This document shows positions 3,943-29,818 of a stretch of DNA of 35,517 bases, in pieces. The DNA is from a virus. Lineage: Duplodnaviria > Caudoviricetes. Under the pieces are notes generated by a model. It was given only the letters and a program-made list of their open reading frames with translations, was not told the DNA's origin and searched no databases. Numbering within the stretch: position 1 is the first letter of the stretch; each line of letters opens with the position of its first letter. The position numbers and the translations under genes are program-made. Location: positions 1 through 35,517 of the IMG/VR virus record IMGVR_UViG_3300048080_000033. One strand, 5' to 3'.

Positions 3943-4932
3943 TCAAGGGGTGTTCTCGAAGCCAGACGCGGCCAGTTTTTCCTTGTACCACTCGGCCAGA
4001 CCAGCGGTCATCCGACGCGAAATCGTCGGCCATGCCCAACGGAACAATGCGTCTCGAATGTCGGCCTCGCACTCCGCGAGCACGTCAAGATTGACCGCCT
4101 TAATCAGCGGCCCGATGTCCTTCGGGGAGCCGTCGAGCGCGCCGTCCTCGGTCAGGTGCTGCACCGACTTTTGCCAGCGGGCATCCGTCCGGTAGGCCTC
4201 CACCAACTGCGCCACGATGTCCTTCCCGTTGGGATTAGCCTTGCCCCATTCCTTCTGATGCACTTCCTTGAAGGCCTCCGAGACATACTTGCCCATCAGC
4301 ACCTTCTTGTCGATTCCGAACCGGGCGTAATTCTTGACCACCACGCCCTCGATGAGCGCCCCGCCTAGAATTGACTCTCGCTGGAGCATCAGCTTCAGTC
4401 CGGCCCAATCATCGACCTTGCCGGTGTACAGGGTTGGCACGGACTCCAGCCCGACACGCGCCGCTTCCGCCGCAAGGCCCGCCGGGTCGAGAAACGCCTG
4501 TGTACTGGTCTCCACGTCGAACAGGATGATGTTGTGTTCGGGGGTGCGCCCGTAGGCAAGCGCGTTGTGCTTAGGCTTCGACAGGTACTCGCCCCTGTAG
4601 ATGTATCCCGCCCGCAGGTGAGTCAGCCGTTCAATCTGCTCGACCGCCGTGGCGAACATCTTGTCCGTGGTCGGGGGGGTTTGGTCCTTCCCCTTACTGC
4701 GGACAATCAGCCGGTACTCGCACCGGTTCATACACCCGTCATGGTCACACGGCTTACCGGTGCGCGGAACGAACGCAATGTGCCCGAAGGAAATCTGGCT
4801 CCCGTCAACCTTCTCTTGAACCACCACGTCGCCGTCGAACAGGTCAGTCAGTGCCCGATGTCCAAGCGCATAGATGGACGGATAGCTTGCCAGCTTGAAC
4901 GGGGTCGGGGTCATTTCGGTTGTCTCACTCAT
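3943..4932 (-). CDS. ATP-dependent RNA ligase (Rnl2-like)
   Basis: Nucleotidyltransferase motifs EKVDGS, RGEY, FDV, EGVVVK, KYVSEAFKE. Confidence 0.85.
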   Translation of the reverse strand: MSETTEMTPTPFKLASYPSIYALGHRALTDLFDGDVVVQEKVDGSQISFGHIAFVPRTGKPCDHDGCMNRCEYRLIVRSKGKDQTPPTTDKMFATAVEQIERLTHLRAGYIYRGEYLSKPKHNALAYGRTPEHNIILFDVETSTQAFLDPAGLAAEAARVGLESVPTLYTGKVDDWAGLKLMLQRESILGGALIEGVVVKNYARFGIDKKVLMGKYVSEAFKEVHQKEWGKANPNGKDIVAQLVEAYRTDARWQKSVQHLTEDGALDGSPKDIGPLIKAVNLDVLAECEADIRDALFRWAWPTISRRMTAGLAEWYKEKLAASGFENTP

Positions 4933-5227
4933 CGCGTACCCTCGAGTTTTCAGGATAGATGTCATCAGCGTTCTGTTCCCCGCGCAAGACAATCAACGCC
5001 CACAGCGCGAGGTCAAACGCGTCGCGCCGGTTGCGGGGGAAGTCCACCAGCGTACAGGTTTCTTCACCCGCGTCCTCGCGCACCAGCACAGCATCATAGT
5101 GGCACAGCCGTTCCGGTGTGTCAGGTTCCCCGTGCCCGCCCGTGTTGGTCAGGTACAGCGAGCCGATGGGATACGCCCGCGCTACATCGCCGTGGGGTAG
5201 GACTTCGAAGGTGATTCGGAGGGTCAC
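4925..5227 (-). CDS. Hypothetical protein
   Basis: ORF overlapping both neighbours by a few nt. Confidence 0.6.
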   Translation of the reverse strand: MTLRITFEVLPHGDVARAYPIGSLYLTNTGGHGEPDTPERLCHYDAVLVREDAGEETCTLVDFPRNRRDAFDLALWALIVLRGEQNADDIYPENSRVRDE

Positions 5228-11647: not shown

Positions 11648-12286
11648 TTATACCCCGCCGCCTAGCGGCAGCACTTCCTGGGCCATGCACCGCGCCGCCA
11701 TGTCACAGTATCGTTCGTCAATCTCAATTCCGATGGCCCGCAGCCCTAGATTCTTAGCGGCTCGTAGTGTGGTGCCGGAACCCACGAACGGGTCGAGGAC
11801 GGTGCCCGCGTCGGGGAAGAATGTCAGGCACCATTGGATGACGCGGAGCGGCTTCTGCGTGGGGTGTAGCCGCCCGTGTTGCTCGTTACGAACCCCGCTC
11901 ACCGGTTGGATGATATGCGAGGTGGTCATGGACTTGTTTGTCCAGCACAACTCCACGGAACCCATCGACGGGGGTGCATCCGGTTTGACCCACACCAGCC
12001 AGCCCCGCGATAGCGGCAGCGTGAAGTAGTTGCCGCCCCACACGCAGGCATTCCGGCCAGCAGCCACAACCGCCGCCATGACCTCATCGGGCGGAGGCGC
12101 GTTATCCCAGTCTTGCGGTTGGAACCCGTCGCGCCGTTGCCATTTGGTAGGCTGCGCCGCGAACCCTATCCCGTAGGGCGGGTCGGTCAGCACGAGGTCA
12201 ACCGGCTCCAGTTGCGGCAGGATGTCCGCACAGTTGCCGTGATAGATGGTGATGCCATCGCGGTCATAATAGGGCTTCAGCGACAC
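11648..12286 (-). CDS. DNA N6-adenine/N4-cytosine methyltransferase (beta class)
   Basis: TDPPY, HPTQKP, VLDPFVGSGTT. Confidence 0.92.
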   Translation of the reverse strand: MSLKPYYDRDGITIYHGNCADILPQLEPVDLVLTDPPYGIGFAAQPTKWQRRDGFQPQDWDNAPPPDEVMAAVVAAGRNACVWGGNYFTLPLSRGWLVWVKPDAPPSMGSVELCWTNKSMTTSHIIQPVSGVRNEQHGRLHPTQKPLRVIQWCLTFFPDAGTVLDPFVGSGTTLRAAKNLGLRAIGIEIDERYCDMAARCMAQEVLPLGGGV

Positions 12287-12906
12287 GGCTTGAACGACCT
12301 CCGGTGTTCGGGGGTCAGGCCGTGCGCCGCGATTCCTGCAAGGTGCTTCGGGGTGCCGTACCCGACGTTGTGCTTCCAGTCATAGCCACGATAGAACGCG
12401 TCTAGCGCCATCATGTACCGGTCACGCGCCACCTTCGCCACGATAGACGCCGCGCCCACGGTCAGCGACAGCGAGTCCGCCTTGTTGACGAATGTGGCCA
12501 GGTGTCGCGGGAAGAACAGGAACGGGCGGAGGTTCGCGCCGTCTACAATCACGCCGACCGGTTCCGGGCTACCGAGCTGCGTCCAGCATTCCATGAACGC
12601 TGCCATCATCGCCTTGCATCGCGCCTGAAAGATGTTGATGCTGTCGATTTCCTCCGGCCCCACACCGGCCACAGCCCACGCCGTCGCCATGCTGGTAATC
12701 TTGGGGAACAGCAGCTCCCGTGATGACCGCGACAACCGCTTGCTGTCATCCACATCCGCGTACCATTTGCATTTGGTGTCCAGCGGCAGCGCCACAGCGC
12801 CCGCCACTACCGGCCCCGCAAGGCATCCGGCCCCGACCTCATCTAGCCCGATGATGTACTGTGCGCCCCGCTCCAGTAGCTCGGCCTCAAGGTCAGTCGT
12901 CGGCAT
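12277..12906 (-). CDS. rnhB: Ribonuclease HII
   Basis: GLDEVG.G.LAGPV, DSK, VDG, AASIVAKVARD, GYGT..H, HRRSF. Confidence 0.92.
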   Translation of the reverse strand: MPTTDLEAELLERGAQYIIGLDEVGAGCLAGPVVAGAVALPLDTKCKWYADVDDSKRLSRSSRELLFPKITSMATAWAVAGVGPEEIDSINIFQARCKAMMAAFMECWTQLGSPEPVGVIVDGANLRPFLFFPRHLATFVNKADSLSLTVGAASIVAKVARDRYMMALDAFYRGYDWKHNVGYGTPKHLAGIAAHGLTPEHRRSFKPCR

Positions 12907-13600
12907 ACATCGGCTCGAGTTCCTGCTTCACCGGCTTCACCTTCGGGTAGGGTAGGTCAATCAACAGCGCCGCCTTAGCCTTGCGGTTCAGCGGCAGGCA
13001 GTACCGGTGCTTGCCGGTACGCTTGATTGCCACGATTCCCATGTGCTTGTTGCGCTCCATGACGACCGCGTGTGCCGCCGTTCCGTACTGATTATAGAAC
13101 TTCCGTGGGGAGATTTCCTTACCGCCGATGAAGTAGCGGGGGTGTCCCGCTGATGGCATCTCTCCCGTGTACGTGAAGTTGGATGCCTGATAGATGATAC
13201 CGAGGTGACCCTGCCCCACGTCAGCATAGGAAAGGATGGCGTCGTACCTCTCACGCCGTAGCTGTTTAACCGCCAATGCCAGCATCGCGGACAGCGGTTT
13301 GAACTCCGGCTTACAGGCCAGCCGCGACAGCTCCAGCACTCGCCAATCATCCGAACCGAACAGGTTCTTCCGAACGAACCGTGAGGACACGCCGCTGAAC
13401 ACGGCCACGCCGACCGTTTCGTTGCCGGTTGCATCGAAGAATCCATAGTACCGGCCCTGTGACACGCCGCCCATATAATGATACTTGCGGAGGAACGCGT
13501 CGGCTTGCTGCTTGCTACAGCCCCGGATTACCAGCGCGGGAGCCGCGCCGCGCTCAGCCTGGTCAAACAGGTTCCCTTGTTGTGTGTCAACGAGCGTCAT
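12893..13600 (-). CDS. mom: Mom-like GNAT adenine-modifying enzyme
   Basis: FL.KYHY, VLELSRL, ILSYAD..QGH.G.IYQASNF.Y.G, KHRY motifs; start reassigned to the ATG at 13600 because 13608-13683 is a tRNA. Confidence 0.85.
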   Translation of the reverse strand: MTLVDTQQGNLFDQAERGAAPALVIRGCSKQQADAFLRKYHYMGGVSQGRYYGFFDATGNETVGVAVFSGVSSRFVRKNLFGSDDWRVLELSRLACKPEFKPLSAMLALAVKQLRRERYDAILSYADVGQGHLGIIYQASNFTYTGEMPSAGHPRYFIGGKEISPRKFYNQYGTAAHAVVMERNKHMGIVAIKRTGKHRYCLPLNRKAKAALLIDLPYPKVKPVKQELEPMYADD

Positions 13601-13607
13601 AGCATTT

Positions 13608-13683
13608 TGGAGCGGGCGGGTGGACTTGCACCACCAACGCTGTGCTGGAAGCATAGCATGATACTCTGTTTCAACACGCCCGC
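13608..13683 (-). tRNA. trnG: Atypical tRNA-Gly(UCC), likely non-proteinogenic
   Basis: GCGGGCG/CGCCCGC acceptor stem, U73, encoded CCA, anticodon loop CUUCCAG, T-stem GGUGG/CCACC, 76 nt; T-loop UGCAAGU and D-loop lacking GG. Confidence 0.88.
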
Positions 13684-13687
13684 GTTT

Positions 13688-13951
13688 CTATTGTACCCCG
13701 CGCCGGGGGTGAGCCTTCTGGGACTGGACGGGGAACGGTCGTTCGGTCAGGATGCCCCGCGCCAACGCCTTAGTGATGAGCTGATTGACCCGCTGTCGGC
13801 TCACGCCCATCAGCGCCGCAAGGTCAGACTGGGACATGAATCCGTCCGCTATCCGCCGATGATGTTTGGTCAGCAGCCGCAACAGCTCCGCGATGGCCGG
13901 GCTGTGCTTCAGGTAGACCCGCAACACTTCAGGCGGGATGTTAGAACTCAT
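13688..13951 (-). CDS. HTH DNA-binding protein (Crp-like HTH)
   Basis: MSQSDLAALMGVSRQRVNQLI...RGIL. Confidence 0.75.
   Translation of the reverse strand: MSSNIPPEVLRVYLKHSPAIAELLRLLTKHHRRIADGFMSQSDLAALMGVSRQRVNQLITKALARGILTERPFPVQSQKAHPRRGVQ
13690..13698 (-). promoter_or_regulatory. GGG-TACAAT -10 promoter with predicted +1 at tRNA G1
   Basis: Hexamer at 13690-13695; 6 nt spacer to 13683, the same spacing as the leaderless genes. Confidence 0.7.
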
Positions 13952-14471
13952 CGTCGCTCCCCTTGAAGCCGCCAATGGACACGGGGATTCCGCCGGTCGG
14001 CCCGCCTGCCTCCACGTCCTCTTTCGGGTCACCCGCGTCCACGCCGGTCACGTCATCCGCGATGGTGTAGTGGTGTGGCGACTTGTCGCTGTGCTTCTCC
14101 TTCAGCCGGGCCACTTCGGGGGTCATGGCGTCAATGAACGCCCTGTATCCGCCCGCTACCATGCGGTCGTCGTTGAACCGGCCCGCCGCCATCGCGTCCG
14201 CCAGGATGGCGATGCTTGCCAGCGCGTGAGCGAAGTGGTGGAGGCCGGAATCGGGGTCGATGTCCTCACCCTCGAACCACGCGTTCATGTGCCGCCGAAC
14301 CGCGTCGTAATAGATGCTGGCCCGCACACCCGCCGCTCGCCAGTTGGTGCGCCCGTACTTCAGCATCCCGTCTTCGCATCCGAGCGCTCCGAGGATACTG
14401 GCGACTTCCGGCCACAGGTGGAAAGGAACCTTGTCGGAGCCGAGCGTCTGCTTCGGGTTGGTTAGTTTCAT
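13941..14471 (-). CDS. dATP/dGTP diphosphohydrolase (DUF5664-like)
   Basis: NPK...G..K.P, G..KYG..NWR, YYDA..RH..AW..GED.DPDSGLHH.AHA. Confidence 0.88.
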   Translation of the reverse strand: MKLTNPKQTLGSDKVPFHLWPEVASILGALGCEDGMLKYGRTNWRAAGVRASIYYDAVRRHMNAWFEGEDIDPDSGLHHFAHALASIAILADAMAAGRFNDDRMVAGGYRAFIDAMTPEVARLKEKHSDKSPHHYTIADDVTGVDAGDPKEDVEAGGPTGGIPVSIGGFKGSDDEF

Positions 14472-14482
14472 AGGTGCCTCCT

Positions 14483-15106
14483 TTACGCGCCCGCCATATC
14501 GAGCGCCTGGTCCAGATTGCAAAGTTTGATGTACCCGCTGTGCGCCCACACGTCATCCGTGGACGTGTACGGCCAGTCCATGAGCGCAACCGGTACGCCC
14601 CGTCTGGCGAACGCGACCGCCGTGTGGGGTGCGTCCTCAATCACGAGGCCGGGGTTGAAGTGCTCAATCAAATCCGCCTTGTCGGTGCCGCCGCCCATCC
14701 CGCCCCGCTTACTGACGATGACCAGCGGTTCCGCGATGCCTTGCATCTCGAGCCAACGTACCGTCTGGTGATACACCGAGTCGCCCGCGCTAGGTGCCCG
14801 CGCCGTGACGAACAGAATGGGAAGCCGCGACGCCGCATCCGCTATCCGCTTGAATTGCTCGGGGGTTGCCAGCGTCGGGCATTGCAGCCAGAAGTCAGGG
14901 ATAGTTTCAATGCGCTCGAACCCCCACGCAAACTGTTCCTTCGTGATGCCTTGCTTATCCCACGCCCAATCGGATACTTCACGCGTGTACGTGATGGGGG
15001 TGCCGAACTCTAGGTGAAGCAGCCTGCTGAACGCGAACGCGAACTCGGCCAATACGCCGTCCACGTCACAGAACGTCAGGGTCGGGCGCGTGAATGTGTA
15101 GGTCAC
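14483..15106 (-). CDS. HAD-family 5'(3')-deoxyribonucleotidase
   Basis: DVDGVLA, VTAR, K, IED motifs. Confidence 0.85.
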   Translation of the reverse strand: MTYTFTRPTLTFCDVDGVLAEFAFAFSRLLHLEFGTPITYTREVSDWAWDKQGITKEQFAWGFERIETIPDFWLQCPTLATPEQFKRIADAASRLPILFVTARAPSAGDSVYHQTVRWLEMQGIAEPLVIVSKRGGMGGGTDKADLIEHFNPGLVIEDAPHTAVAFARRGVPVALMDWPYTSTDDVWAHSGYIKLCNLDQALDMAGA

Positions 15107-23020: not shown

Positions 23021-23536
23021 CTATCTGAGGCTATTATACCCCAAATGACGCCGCAAGTCCGCCAGGCCACGCAAGGGAACCGCCGTAACTGGTACGCCTT
23101 GTAGGATGTCAGCCGCCGCCCGCTGTGCTGCCTCGGTTGCGCCGTACATCAGCAGGCCCGCGTCCGCGTCATCGTAGACGGCCAGCGCCCGCAGCTCCGC
23201 CGGGGTCCCGTCGCCGCCCTGGATGTCTAGCGCCTCAGCCATCGCTTCCAGCGACACGGCCCCGATGTCACCGAATCGCTTGCCAGCGTGTGCCTCGCGG
23301 TTCAGCTTAGCGAGCGCGTTCTGTAGGCAGTTGGTAGCGTAGGTGATGAACTTCACCTTGCCGGGGCGGAACGTGCGCCACGCCCGCCACAGCGCGACAC
23401 GCAGCACCTGGACAGTGTCCTCTTCCTCCAGATAATCCGGGCGCCGGTTGGCTATCTTGTGGACTAGGCGGTCGTACTGAGCCGCACATTGGTCAAAGGA
23501 TGTTCCCGTGCGCGTGACGATGTACTTGATTCCCAC
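23021..23536 (-). CDS. Sigma70-family factor (region 2 clear, region 4 reduced)
   Basis: Y..LV.KIA, ED..Q....LW.A...F......F.TYA...N. Confidence 0.75.
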   Translation of the reverse strand: MGIKYIVTRTGTSFDQCAAQYDRLVHKIANRRPDYLEEEDTVQVLRVALWRAWRTFRPGKVKFITYATNCLQNALAKLNREAHAGKRFGDIGAVSLEAMAEALDIQGGDGTPAELRALAVYDDADAGLLMYGATEAAQRAAADILQGVPVTAVPLRGLADLRRHLGYNSLR

Positions 23537-24468: not shown

Positions 24469-25154
24469 CTAGTCTTTCCGCGCCCTGACGAACGCCGCCA
24501 CGAGTGGCCGCGCCCGCCGATTCAAGGCGTACAGATAGACGTGCTTCTGAACCGTGGGCATCTTGTCAGTCACTTTGTCTCCGTAGATTTCCCGCAGCGC
24601 CGCCTCGCGGTCGATGGCGGACTTCGCCAACTTCCGCAAGGATGACCGGCCCACTAGCTTCCCGTCTACCACGAACGACCCACGGCTGTCGGTGTGCCCC
24701 GTGGACATCCCGTAGTACAGCCAATTGGTAGCCCTGTAGATGATGCCCGTATGCCCGTATGTGGGGTCAGCATAGGACAGCAGCACGTCGGTTCCCTCGC
24801 GCCGTTGTTCCGTGAACAGCCGCCGGATGAATTGTGACTCGCTATTCTTGGGCATCTCGTCAGTCAAGGCCAGCCGCGACAGCTCTTTGATGGTCAAGTG
24901 GTTGTCCTCCGCGAACACCTGATACCGTGACCGCGATTTCTCATTGCCGCCGATAGTTGTTTGATGGTTGCCACGCCTACCAGCTCGACGCCCTTGAACA
25001 GCCCATAGAACGCGCCCGTGCTAGGCGTCTTGCTGTAGTGCCACTGACGCAGGAACCGCCGAGCATCATACGCCTGCACCAGCCGAACGGATAACTCGTC
25101 GTCAGCCGGTTGCCCGAACAGGCTCCCTTGCATCGCGGATACCGCCTTTGTCAC
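24469..25154 (-). pseudogene. Second Mom-like GNAT, split by a -1 frameshift
   Basis: N-half (FLRQWHYS, LVGVA) in ORF 24894-25154; C-half (ELSRL, KNSES, SYADP..GH.G.IY.ATNW.Y.G, KH.Y) in ORF 24469-24918. Confidence 0.75.
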
Positions 25155-25359: not shown

Positions 25360-25660
25360 CTTCCTTTCGTCTGGCCCGCCATCCGCTTATTCACAGCTTG
25401 GGGTTCCGTCCCTGTGGAACCACTGTGCGCCCTCACCCGCGATAGCTCAAGTCTGGAAGTTTCATCGCTCCCTCAGCCGGATGACTGGACCTCGTATTTG
25501 GTTCCGGGGCCGGTTCGCTGTCTGTTTCCGCTGCACACTGGTCTTACACGGTGTCGAATCAGCCTAGCGGCCCCGGTAGGAACGGTGAATCAATAGCCTT
25601 GTCCGTTGTGACTGTTGCCAGTCTGGTCAACCACACGCCTTCCAAAATCGCGTCGTTCCT
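25360..25660 (-). ncRNA. Candidate structured RNA / long 5' leader
   Basis: Stems 25504-12/25568-76, 25579-84/25654-59, GCAA-tetraloop hairpin 25610-23, 25402-07/25416-21. Confidence 0.5.
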
Positions 25661-29716: not shown

Positions 29717-29818
29717 GTCCCTATTATACCCGGCGCGTCACAGGCGGGCTTCCCGCGTCACCATGCGGGGGGATACAGGCCCACGGGGTAGACCCCACGC
29801 CAGCAGCGCCCCAGCGCG

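Follow-up and report, generated by a model that had tools for sequence, protein, structure and literature searches.

A tRNA-Gly-derived RNA gene beside a Mom-family gene in a phage contig: a probable glycyl carrier for DNA modification

Results

A tRNA-Gly(UCC)-derived gene directly precedes a mom gene

The IMG/VR virus record IMGVR_UViG_3300048080_000033 is a phage contig with replication, recombination and LysM genes, and the sole public run containing it is a sediment metagenome. The entire 35.5-kb contig (35,517 nucleotides) was analysed and is called the window. On its minus strand, a gene for a tRNA-Gly(UCC)-derived RNA adjoins a gene of the Mom family of DNA aminoacyltransferases (Table 1). 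We propose that this RNA is probably a dedicated glycyl carrier for Mom, which would be charged by glycyl-tRNA synthetase (GlyRS) and, as predicted from its T-stem, bound weakly by EF-Tu.

The initial annotation of this DNA had described the RNA as a 76-nucleotide cloverleaf and had suggested ARAGORN and Rfam searches, which gave different answers. ARAGORN at default settings called a tRNA-Gly(TCC) at 13608-13683 on the minus strand, the only tRNA called in the window, whereas RF00005 gave no match, even with a 201-nucleotide stretch at E<=10. The full length of 76 nucleotides, U33, A37 and the UCC anticodon are present, and the glycine identity bases named in that annotation (G1-C72, C2-G71, G3-C70, C35, C36, U73) are all there together with the encoded CCA. 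The deviations it had listed can also be read in the sequence: the T loop is UGCAAGU, with UGC replacing UUC (the GUGC loop), the D loop has no GG, the T-stem has the pair U51-A63, and the anticodon stem contains an A-C mismatch. The T-stem pairs G49-C65 and G50-C64, a U10.U25 mismatch and C32/G38 come in addition. Thus, an RF00005 match, the D-loop GG and the UUC T loop, which characterise canonical elongators, are all missing, though ARAGORN calls a tRNA.

The fold of the RNA is better than expected by chance (z -2.8; 1 of 200 shuffles was equally good), and the acceptor stem alone is firm, with pair probabilities of 0.96-1.0 compared with 0.13 for the T-stem. The proposed cloverleaf could be retained in its coordinates, its segmentation and the ARAGORN call, but not as the structure of minimum free energy (MFE), since a strict cloverleaf reaches -19.2 to -22.8 against -31.1. 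Imposing the acceptor and T-stems gives a fold 1.7 kcal/mol above the MFE in which the anticodon stem is extended and a true D arm is missing, a shape resembling the short D-arm-less relatives described below.

The adjoining protein belongs to the Mom family. It matches PF25680 with an E-value of 3.6e-30 and 105.6 bits (curated cut-off 27.1) over profile positions 2-202 of 202, phrog_1384 with E 1.3e-35 and, using phmmer, the Mu Mom structure PDB 8bv8 with E 1.1e-5. For the predicted model (pLDDT 84), Foldseek ranks 8bv8 first (E 2.4e-11, TM 0.57-0.66), followed by the next GNAT at E 8e-6; identity to Mu Mom in the structural alignment is 22-25%. Residues H58, Y59, R111, D149 and Y159 of Mu Mom correspond to H41, Y42, R93, D127 and Y137 in our own numbering of the phmmer alignment. 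Like Mu Mom, the window enzyme likely acts on adenine, here in the DNA of the phage. On a Mom tree computed with a quick method the protein forms a long branch outside any supported clade; the presence of the tRNA is clustered on this tree (12 changes compared with 34.7 after shuffling), from which the order of events cannot be drawn.

The window also contains a second, frameshifted mom paralogue, the C-terminal piece of which is 32% identical to the first Mom. No tRNA adjoins it, and the RNA family model R1 (see below) has no match there. One public contig is identical in its letters to the window over both mom loci; it is possibly the source of the window and so not independent support.

Table 1. 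Features around the tRNA-Gly-derived gene and the second mom locus, in window positions
Feature	Position	Strand	Basis or remark
N6/N4 DNA methyltransferase gene, next in likely operon	11648..12286	-	PF01555, E 6e-22
RNase HII gene, overlaps the 3' end of mom; likely in one operon with it	12277..12906	-	PF01351, E 6e-31
Mom-family GNAT DNA aminoacyltransferase, 235 aa	12893..13600	-	PF25680, phrog_1384, PDB 8bv8
Out-of-frame ATG-CTA-TGA just past CCA, stop overlapping the mom ATG	13597..13605	-	sequence
Stop-free extension of the mom frame over the whole tRNA, in-frame ATG at 13654	13601..13687	-	phase as in most upstream-type homologues
tRNA-Gly(UCC)-derived RNA gene, 76 nt, CCA encoded	13608..13683	-	ARAGORN; bulge-less type of the Mom-linked family
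-10-only promoter-like motif, GGTACAAT	13690..13697	-	overlaps the 3' end (final codons, stop) of the HTH gene upstream
Upstream helix-turn-helix (HTH) protein gene, stop 4 nt ahead of G1	13688..13951	-	MarR_2 / HTH matches
Second mom paralogue, frameshifted, break near 24950	24469..25133	-	two PF25680 pieces in different frames

Related RNAs adjoin mom in many phages and bacteria

The initial annotation had asked whether Mom homologues carry such a tRNA-Gly immediately upstream. From the mom side, we analysed IMG/VR mom loci (the best 80 of 598 confirmed). A strict structural finder detected a tRNA-Gly-like element <=250 nucleotides from mom in 24 of the 80 loci, compared with 0.009 expected per 500 nucleotides from shuffles. 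The covariance model R1 was built from 61 full-length copies with the window left out. RNAs matching it abut mom in 29 of the 80 loci, 28 of them on the same strand, with 12 of the 29 being training sequences; when the proteins are clustered at 70% identity, 22 of 53 clusters have the RNA beside mom. The window RNA scores 61.4 bits with R1. Of an initial set of six mom loci from cultured sources, five were without a family RNA.

From the RNA side, a pattern for a T-arm with a bulge was used, which had been derived from the mom-locus sample and has an estimated ~920 stretches in IMG/VR. Among the matches listed, a same-strand mom lies beside 98 of 121, and beside 68 of the 69 with >=700 nucleotides on both flanks; of the 80 contigs listed, the mom-locus sample had already included at least 4. 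In GTDB genomes, mom was found beside 76 of 120 matches (52 of 69 with long flanks), twice on the opposite strand, and the Dehalococcoidia loci among them show the layout described by McMurdie et al. in 2011. Searches from either side find tRNA-Gly-derived RNAs directly next to mom. The suggested position as a leader did not hold for the family, in which the RNA is more often located downstream of or inside mom than upstream of it. With this family the window RNA shares same-strand abutment to mom, base pairs 1-3, U73, CCA and an NCC anticodon.

Cultured phages carry family RNAs as well. The Pseudanabaena phage Pan3 (ON968454) has an unannotated copy after mom, and two tandem D-arm-less copies, also unannotated, are located between mom and the small terminase gene of the Psychrobacter phage Y8A (OQ059336; L375:1429-1569), for which the portions of the paper covered report no tRNA genes (PMC10434257). 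BLAST matches of the tRNA 3' end in Yuavirus were rejected as chance matches (19 bits, inside a DUF7694 gene, acceptor stem broken).

Several other arrangements were seen. One IMG/VR contig (L002/L003) carries the tRNA-mom unit twice in tandem; the two RNAs are identical and bulge-less, and the mom genes differ. Four of 24 loci with the exact T-stem of the window precede, or resemble those preceding, a methylase-GNAT fusion (PF22555/PF22559; two were checked): at L381:1101-1180 (-) and L383:1050-1128 (+), D-arm-less tRNA-Gly-like RNAs with this T-stem lie directly before a DAM-like/GNAT fusion (PF22555 + PF22559), so that RNAs of this kind accompany a second enzyme family. Family-type RNAs with no mom within 1.1 kb were found on bacterial contigs (L250, L279, L273, L301, L254, L261, L269 and L293; Acidobacteriota and Bacillota metagenome-assembled genomes) and, at L145 / L283, between glycosyltransferase-like and HTH genes. 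On T4-like phage contigs (L008, L010, L029), GG-less GUGC tRNA-Gly genes with weak T-stems and no mom within 1.5 kb precede a gene that by eye resembles one for a single-stranded DNA-binding protein.

The RNA family covaries and is usually dual-coding

In the majority type of the family an A is bulged out between positions 63 and 64, as in 88 of the 97 representatives that remained after removal of 6 spurious rows; most of these were found by a pattern that requires the bulge. Reading the T-stem with a G50.A64 mismatch was given up in favour of the bulged A, with which compensatory changes appear at 50-64 and 51-63. The window RNA groups with a bulge-less minority that has weak T-stems.

The acceptor stem is paired at 7/7 positions in 205 of 221 distinct pattern matches, compared with 17.6 after swapping 3' strands; the pattern leaves the 5' strand free. 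Covariation in the family is 0.63-0.69 compared with 0.16 after shuffling, counts that lean toward structure because the shuffles ignore relatedness and the alignment (A5) was fitted to the model. Base pairs 1-3 are invariant, and covariation is seen at pairs 4-7 and in both the D and anticodon stems. The initial annotation had named unconserved deviations as the mark of a decaying pseudo-tRNA; the family covaries instead.

Anticodons, located by a script that sought CC in the hairpin, were UCC in 41 of the 97 representatives, ACC in 40, CCC in 9 and GCC in 3, with none found in 4. U33 is retained in 38 of 93, and of 64 full-length forms 30 keep the D-loop GG; D-arm-less forms are common (26 of 67-71 nucleotides were aligned). 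The frequent loss of U33, the D-loop GG and the D arm fits a non-ribosomal role.

The mom frame runs through the RNA without a stop in 61 of 62 upstream copies, compared with 34 of 124 for the other frames (dereplicated: 26/27 and 20/54), and in 68 of 78 downstream copies, compared with 62 of 156 (31/40 and 34/80). Since the mom frame is open far more often than the others, the family RNA is usually dual-coding. The phase of the window is found in 51 of 60 upstream copies. For five homologues (P0003, P0011, P0013, P0019, P0033) the protein calls open with translated tRNA sequence, so the claim that gene callers hide the RNA applies to them, and in these the overlap may be real translation. For the window itself the claim needs correcting: a longest-ORF (open reading frame) caller does start mom inside the tRNA at 13654, but the call of the collection (P0001) is the 235-aa form starting at 13600, and ARAGORN finds the RNA. 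The window frame keeps the common phase but has no start ahead of G1.

Predicted charging and EF-Tu binding

The published identity elements of bacterial tRNA-Gly are G1-C72, C2-G71, C35, C36, U73 and CCA (PMC9976931), all of which are found in the window RNA; the consensus G10-Y25 pair is replaced by U10.U25. U73 has been reported to shield Gly-tRNA-Gly from DTD (PMC6097841).

To predict EF-Tu binding, the additive values for three T-stem pairs of Schrader and Uhlenbeck were used (PMC3239215), with a baseline of -10.1 back-calculated from the staphylococcal entry. The T-stem of the window gives -0.4 + 0.0 + 1.0 = +0.6, that is, a predicted -9.5 kcal/mol. This is the value calculated for the staphylococcal non-proteinogenic tRNA-Gly and lies ~1.9 sigma off the mean of bacterial tRNA-Gly(UCC) (-10.8 kcal/mol, sigma 0.68; PMC3239215). 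Of the bulge-less Mom-linked representatives, seven could be scored, and all of them, among them the window RNA, have weak predicted T-stems (-8.9 to -9.7); the bulged T-arm type cannot be scored by the three-pair model.

The non-proteinogenic tRNA-Gly of staphylococci has a TGC T loop and a weak T-stem, and the UGC of the window T loop agrees with the TGC/TGT definition of such tRNAs (PMC7826273). Rietmeyer et al. described that FmhB is inhibited by EF-Tu through sequestration and prefers the non-proteinogenic tRNAs (PMC7826273).

Promoter-like motif and gene neighbourhood

The -10 box that had been proposed 6 nucleotides ahead of G1, the predicted +1, is present: TACAAT ends at 13690. The motif GGTAYAAT recurs in this phage, with five copies in the window (11647, 13690, 17202, 23033 and 29723, minus strand), all on the coding strand and before genes, compared with 0.78 expected; none of 100 shuffles reached five. 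Two of the sites precede leaderless or nearly leaderless genes. At 29723 a GTG start follows at the same 6-nucleotide spacing as G1, and site 17202 has 13 nucleotides in common with site 13690. A sigma-70 -35/-10 pair was sought at the tRNA site and not found, there being no -35 box. The recurrence of the motif supports a putative +1 at G1 in this phage. As a trait of the whole family, a promoter at G1 was rejected: of 60 upstream copies, 4 have a TAnnnT hexamer at the corresponding distance. The phage also encodes a small sigma-70 region 2 protein (23021-23536).

The mom ATG follows CCA by 7 nucleotides without a Shine-Dalgarno-like purine run, as had been described. The out-of-frame ATG-CTA-TGA could possibly couple translation to mom, or may be there by chance.

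The genes at 11648-14549 (-) encode a dATP/dGTP diphosphohydrolase (PF18909), the HTH protein, the tRNA, Mom, RNase HII and the N6/N4 methylase, with an NT5C-like gene just upstream, and probably form a nucleotide and DNA modification neighbourhood. Elsewhere on the minus strand, an RNA ligase (PF09414) and a dual-specificity phosphatase-like protein are encoded at 3943-4992 and 273-938; RNA repair functions are possible. The stretch 25360-25660 (-) follows a TTGACA promoter-like site and has no long ORF over its ~300 nucleotides (fold z -1.4); an Rfam scan of it gave no match of note.

Discussion

Mu Mom moves glycine from Gly-tRNA-Gly to N6 of deoxyadenosine (dA) (Silva et al. 2026, PMC13219725); this is the donor that the initial annotation had named. 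Gly-tRNA-Ala is not usable by Mu Mom (PMC13219725). For the window we propose that transcription would start from the GGTAYAAT motif with +1 at G1 and that 3' trimming would free the CCA end; with +1 at G1, the 5' end of the RNA may need no RNase P. Host GlyRS would glycylate the RNA, as expected from the identity rules (G1-C72, C2-G71, C35, C36, U73), and U73 would protect the glycylated RNA from DTD when EF-Tu does not. The weak T-stem (predicted -9.5 compared with -10.8 kcal/mol) would leave a free pool of glycylated RNA. From it, glycine would be handed to Mom and on to N6 of dA, with rearrangement to 6-NcmdA and restriction resistance as the outcome, steps that are established for Mu and would apply here by analogy.

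A number of observations weigh against a dedicated carrier. Mu Mom accepts all three E. coli tRNA-Gly isoacceptors, and Mu has no need of a tRNA of its own (PMC13219725, in the portions covered). In the mom-side sample 51 of the 80 loci have no family RNA nearby. The nearest relatives of the window Mom (P0002 and P0055, 48-51%) gave no DNA locus in a single-protein scan of viral contigs or a two-sequence alignment to metagenome contigs. In the protein, R151 of Mu Mom is not kept (G129 in the window, a variable position across alignment A1), and S104 aligns to Mu S124 in MAFFT but to S122 in phmmer. The RNA has no bulged A between 63 and 64 and keeps U33, its predicted MFE structure differs from the cloverleaf, and its U10 (in U10.U25) and G50-C64 depart from the G10 and C50-G64 used by the T. 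thermophilus GlyRS (PMC9976931). Ordinary phage tRNA-Gly reach 68.5 bits on R1, and because they score as high as the window RNA, its score alone cannot prove family membership. Among 46 loci with a GUGC-loop tRNA-Gly, 12 have a mom gene no more than 1.5 kb away; of the Mom-less ones 29 were scorable, 14 with weak and 15 with tight T-stems. Of 24 loci with the exact T-stem of the window, 2 have an adjoining mom, the two being near-identical, and 12 are tRNA-Gly genes grouped with further tRNA genes; all but one of these 12 have a TTC T loop. Loop and T-stem were both rejected as markers of Mom. Since neither is diagnostic, the window RNA is tied to Mom by its position and the sum of its deviations, not by a single marker. 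For the tRNA-plus-Mom cassette of the initial annotation, linkage, covariation and the predicted weak T-stem speak in favour, whereas the GUGC loop and the T-stem do not suffice on their own.

The RNA could instead control mom in cis, with tRNA processing or GlyRS binding deciding the yield of Mom and limiting a toxic enzyme, and with little use as a donor; such control could coexist with a carrier. The open mom frame across the RNA in homologues (61/62 upstream and 68/78 downstream copies) fits this, as do the 51 of 60 upstream copies in the window's phase and the fact that excising the RNA would take away the start or stop of mom. We nevertheless consider it unlikely, as the placement of the RNA varies (upstream, downstream, in tandem after the stop in Y8A, >100 nucleotides off in the L004 group), it is on the opposite strand at L126, L262 and L270, CCA and U73 are kept, and the likely mom start in the window comes after CCA.

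An ordinary translational tRNA-Gly, topping up the Gly-tRNA pool or replacing host tRNA cut by anticodon nucleases, and located beside mom because Mom drains the pool, would also be 76 nucleotides long with U33, A37, a UCC anticodon and a default ARAGORN call; the identical T-stem occurs in phage tRNA-Gly of Arg-Gly-Thr clusters, and the phage encodes an RNA ligase. This seems improbable to us given the absent D-loop GG, the UGC T loop, two stem mismatches and the lack of an RF00005 match; GGA makes up 54 of 473 Gly codons (16 ORFs), and many relatives are missing the D arm or U33. That the RNA is a functionless decaying pseudo-tRNA or integration-site relic is very improbable. Its two stem mismatches, weak D arm and non-cloverleaf MFE would be expected of a relic, and the broken second mom shows that decay does occur in this phage, but the 7-bp acceptor stem is perfect, the 5-bp T-stem, identity bases and CCA are intact, and so are the mom ORF and the promoter-like motif at the right spacing. 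Furthermore, relatives show compensatory changes, and no integrase was found among the 32 ORFs scanned.

A dedicated glycyl carrier thus remains the probable function. A much broader proposal can be put forward only as a speculation that we rate as rather doubtful. Glycyl-carrier RNAs excluded from the ribosome, ranging from full tRNAs to D-arm-less forms, might be widespread and form orthogonal pairs with GNAT DNA modifiers (Mom and the PF22555/PF22559 fusion). Mostly they would lie in frame within the enzyme gene, so that a transcript yields either enzyme or carrier. In the window the two would be uncoupled, the RNA having its own promoter with G1 as +1, having converged on the staphylococcal EF-Tu-evading design and being preferred by Mom over host tRNA-Gly.

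If the carrier function is correct, it would show how Mom enzymes get past sequestration by EF-Tu and yet do not drain translation, and many tRNA-derived genes overlooked by standard annotation, such as the two Y8A copies, would be added. It would also give a function to the 'pseudo-tRNA' published in 2011. The family RNA could serve as a marker for finding further tRNA-dependent DNA-modifying enzymes.

Comparison with known systems

Mu Mom has the same protein family and fold as the window Mom (PF25680; PDB 8bv8). It draws on host isoacceptors, whereas the window mom has its own adjoining tRNA-Gly gene; an element-encoded tRNA is not mentioned in the portions of text and supplement of Silva et al. 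2026 that were covered (PMC13219725). In the open-access literature, subscription journals being outside the scope, we found no paper proposing an element-encoded tRNA as Mom donor.

In ssrA islands of Dehalococcoides, a 76-bp tRNA-Gly-like 'pseudo-tRNA' with the anticodon DCC is located within the 5'-terminal 150 bp of a mom homologue and is conserved in 16 modules (McMurdie et al. 2011, PMC3146451). As in the window, a tRNA-Gly-like locus lies at the mom 5' end. The Dehalococcoides element is embedded in the ORF, whereas in the window the RNA is preceded by a promoter-like motif of its own and the likely start is past CCA. It was published without a function, before the donor of Mom was known.

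Ordinary phage tRNA-Gly(UCC) genes are found in tRNA clusters, some with a GUGC loop or the exact T-stem of the window. Their neighbours are further tRNA genes and not mom, and about half of the GUGC ones (15/29) have tight T-stems.

For cell-wall synthesis in staphylococci, the use of a dedicated non-translational tRNA-Gly is well documented (PMC7826273). The Staphylococcus NP1-3 tRNA-Gly, which work with Fem transferases, have in common with the window RNA the UCC anticodon, the UGC T loop, a weak 51-63 pair and a calculated -9.5 kcal/mol, and their Fem partner is a GNAT-fold aminoacyl transferase like Mom (PMC7826273; PMC3239215). The staphylococcal genes are chromosomal and feed peptidoglycan (PMC7826273), whereas the window RNA is encoded on a phage contig from a sediment metagenome. 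The T-stems differ as well, with A49-U65, U50-A64 and A51-U63 in Staphylococcus (PMC7826273; PMC3239215) compared with G49-C65, G50-C64 and U51-A63 in the window. Since this lineage is stated to be restricted to staphylococci, the likeness is probably convergent. The donor chemistry of Mom, the staphylococcal precedent and the tRNA-Gly-like locus in mom from 2011 are already known; what the window appears to add is a bulge-less, promoter-proximal and uncoupled form that, judged from its sequence, matches the staphylococcal design.

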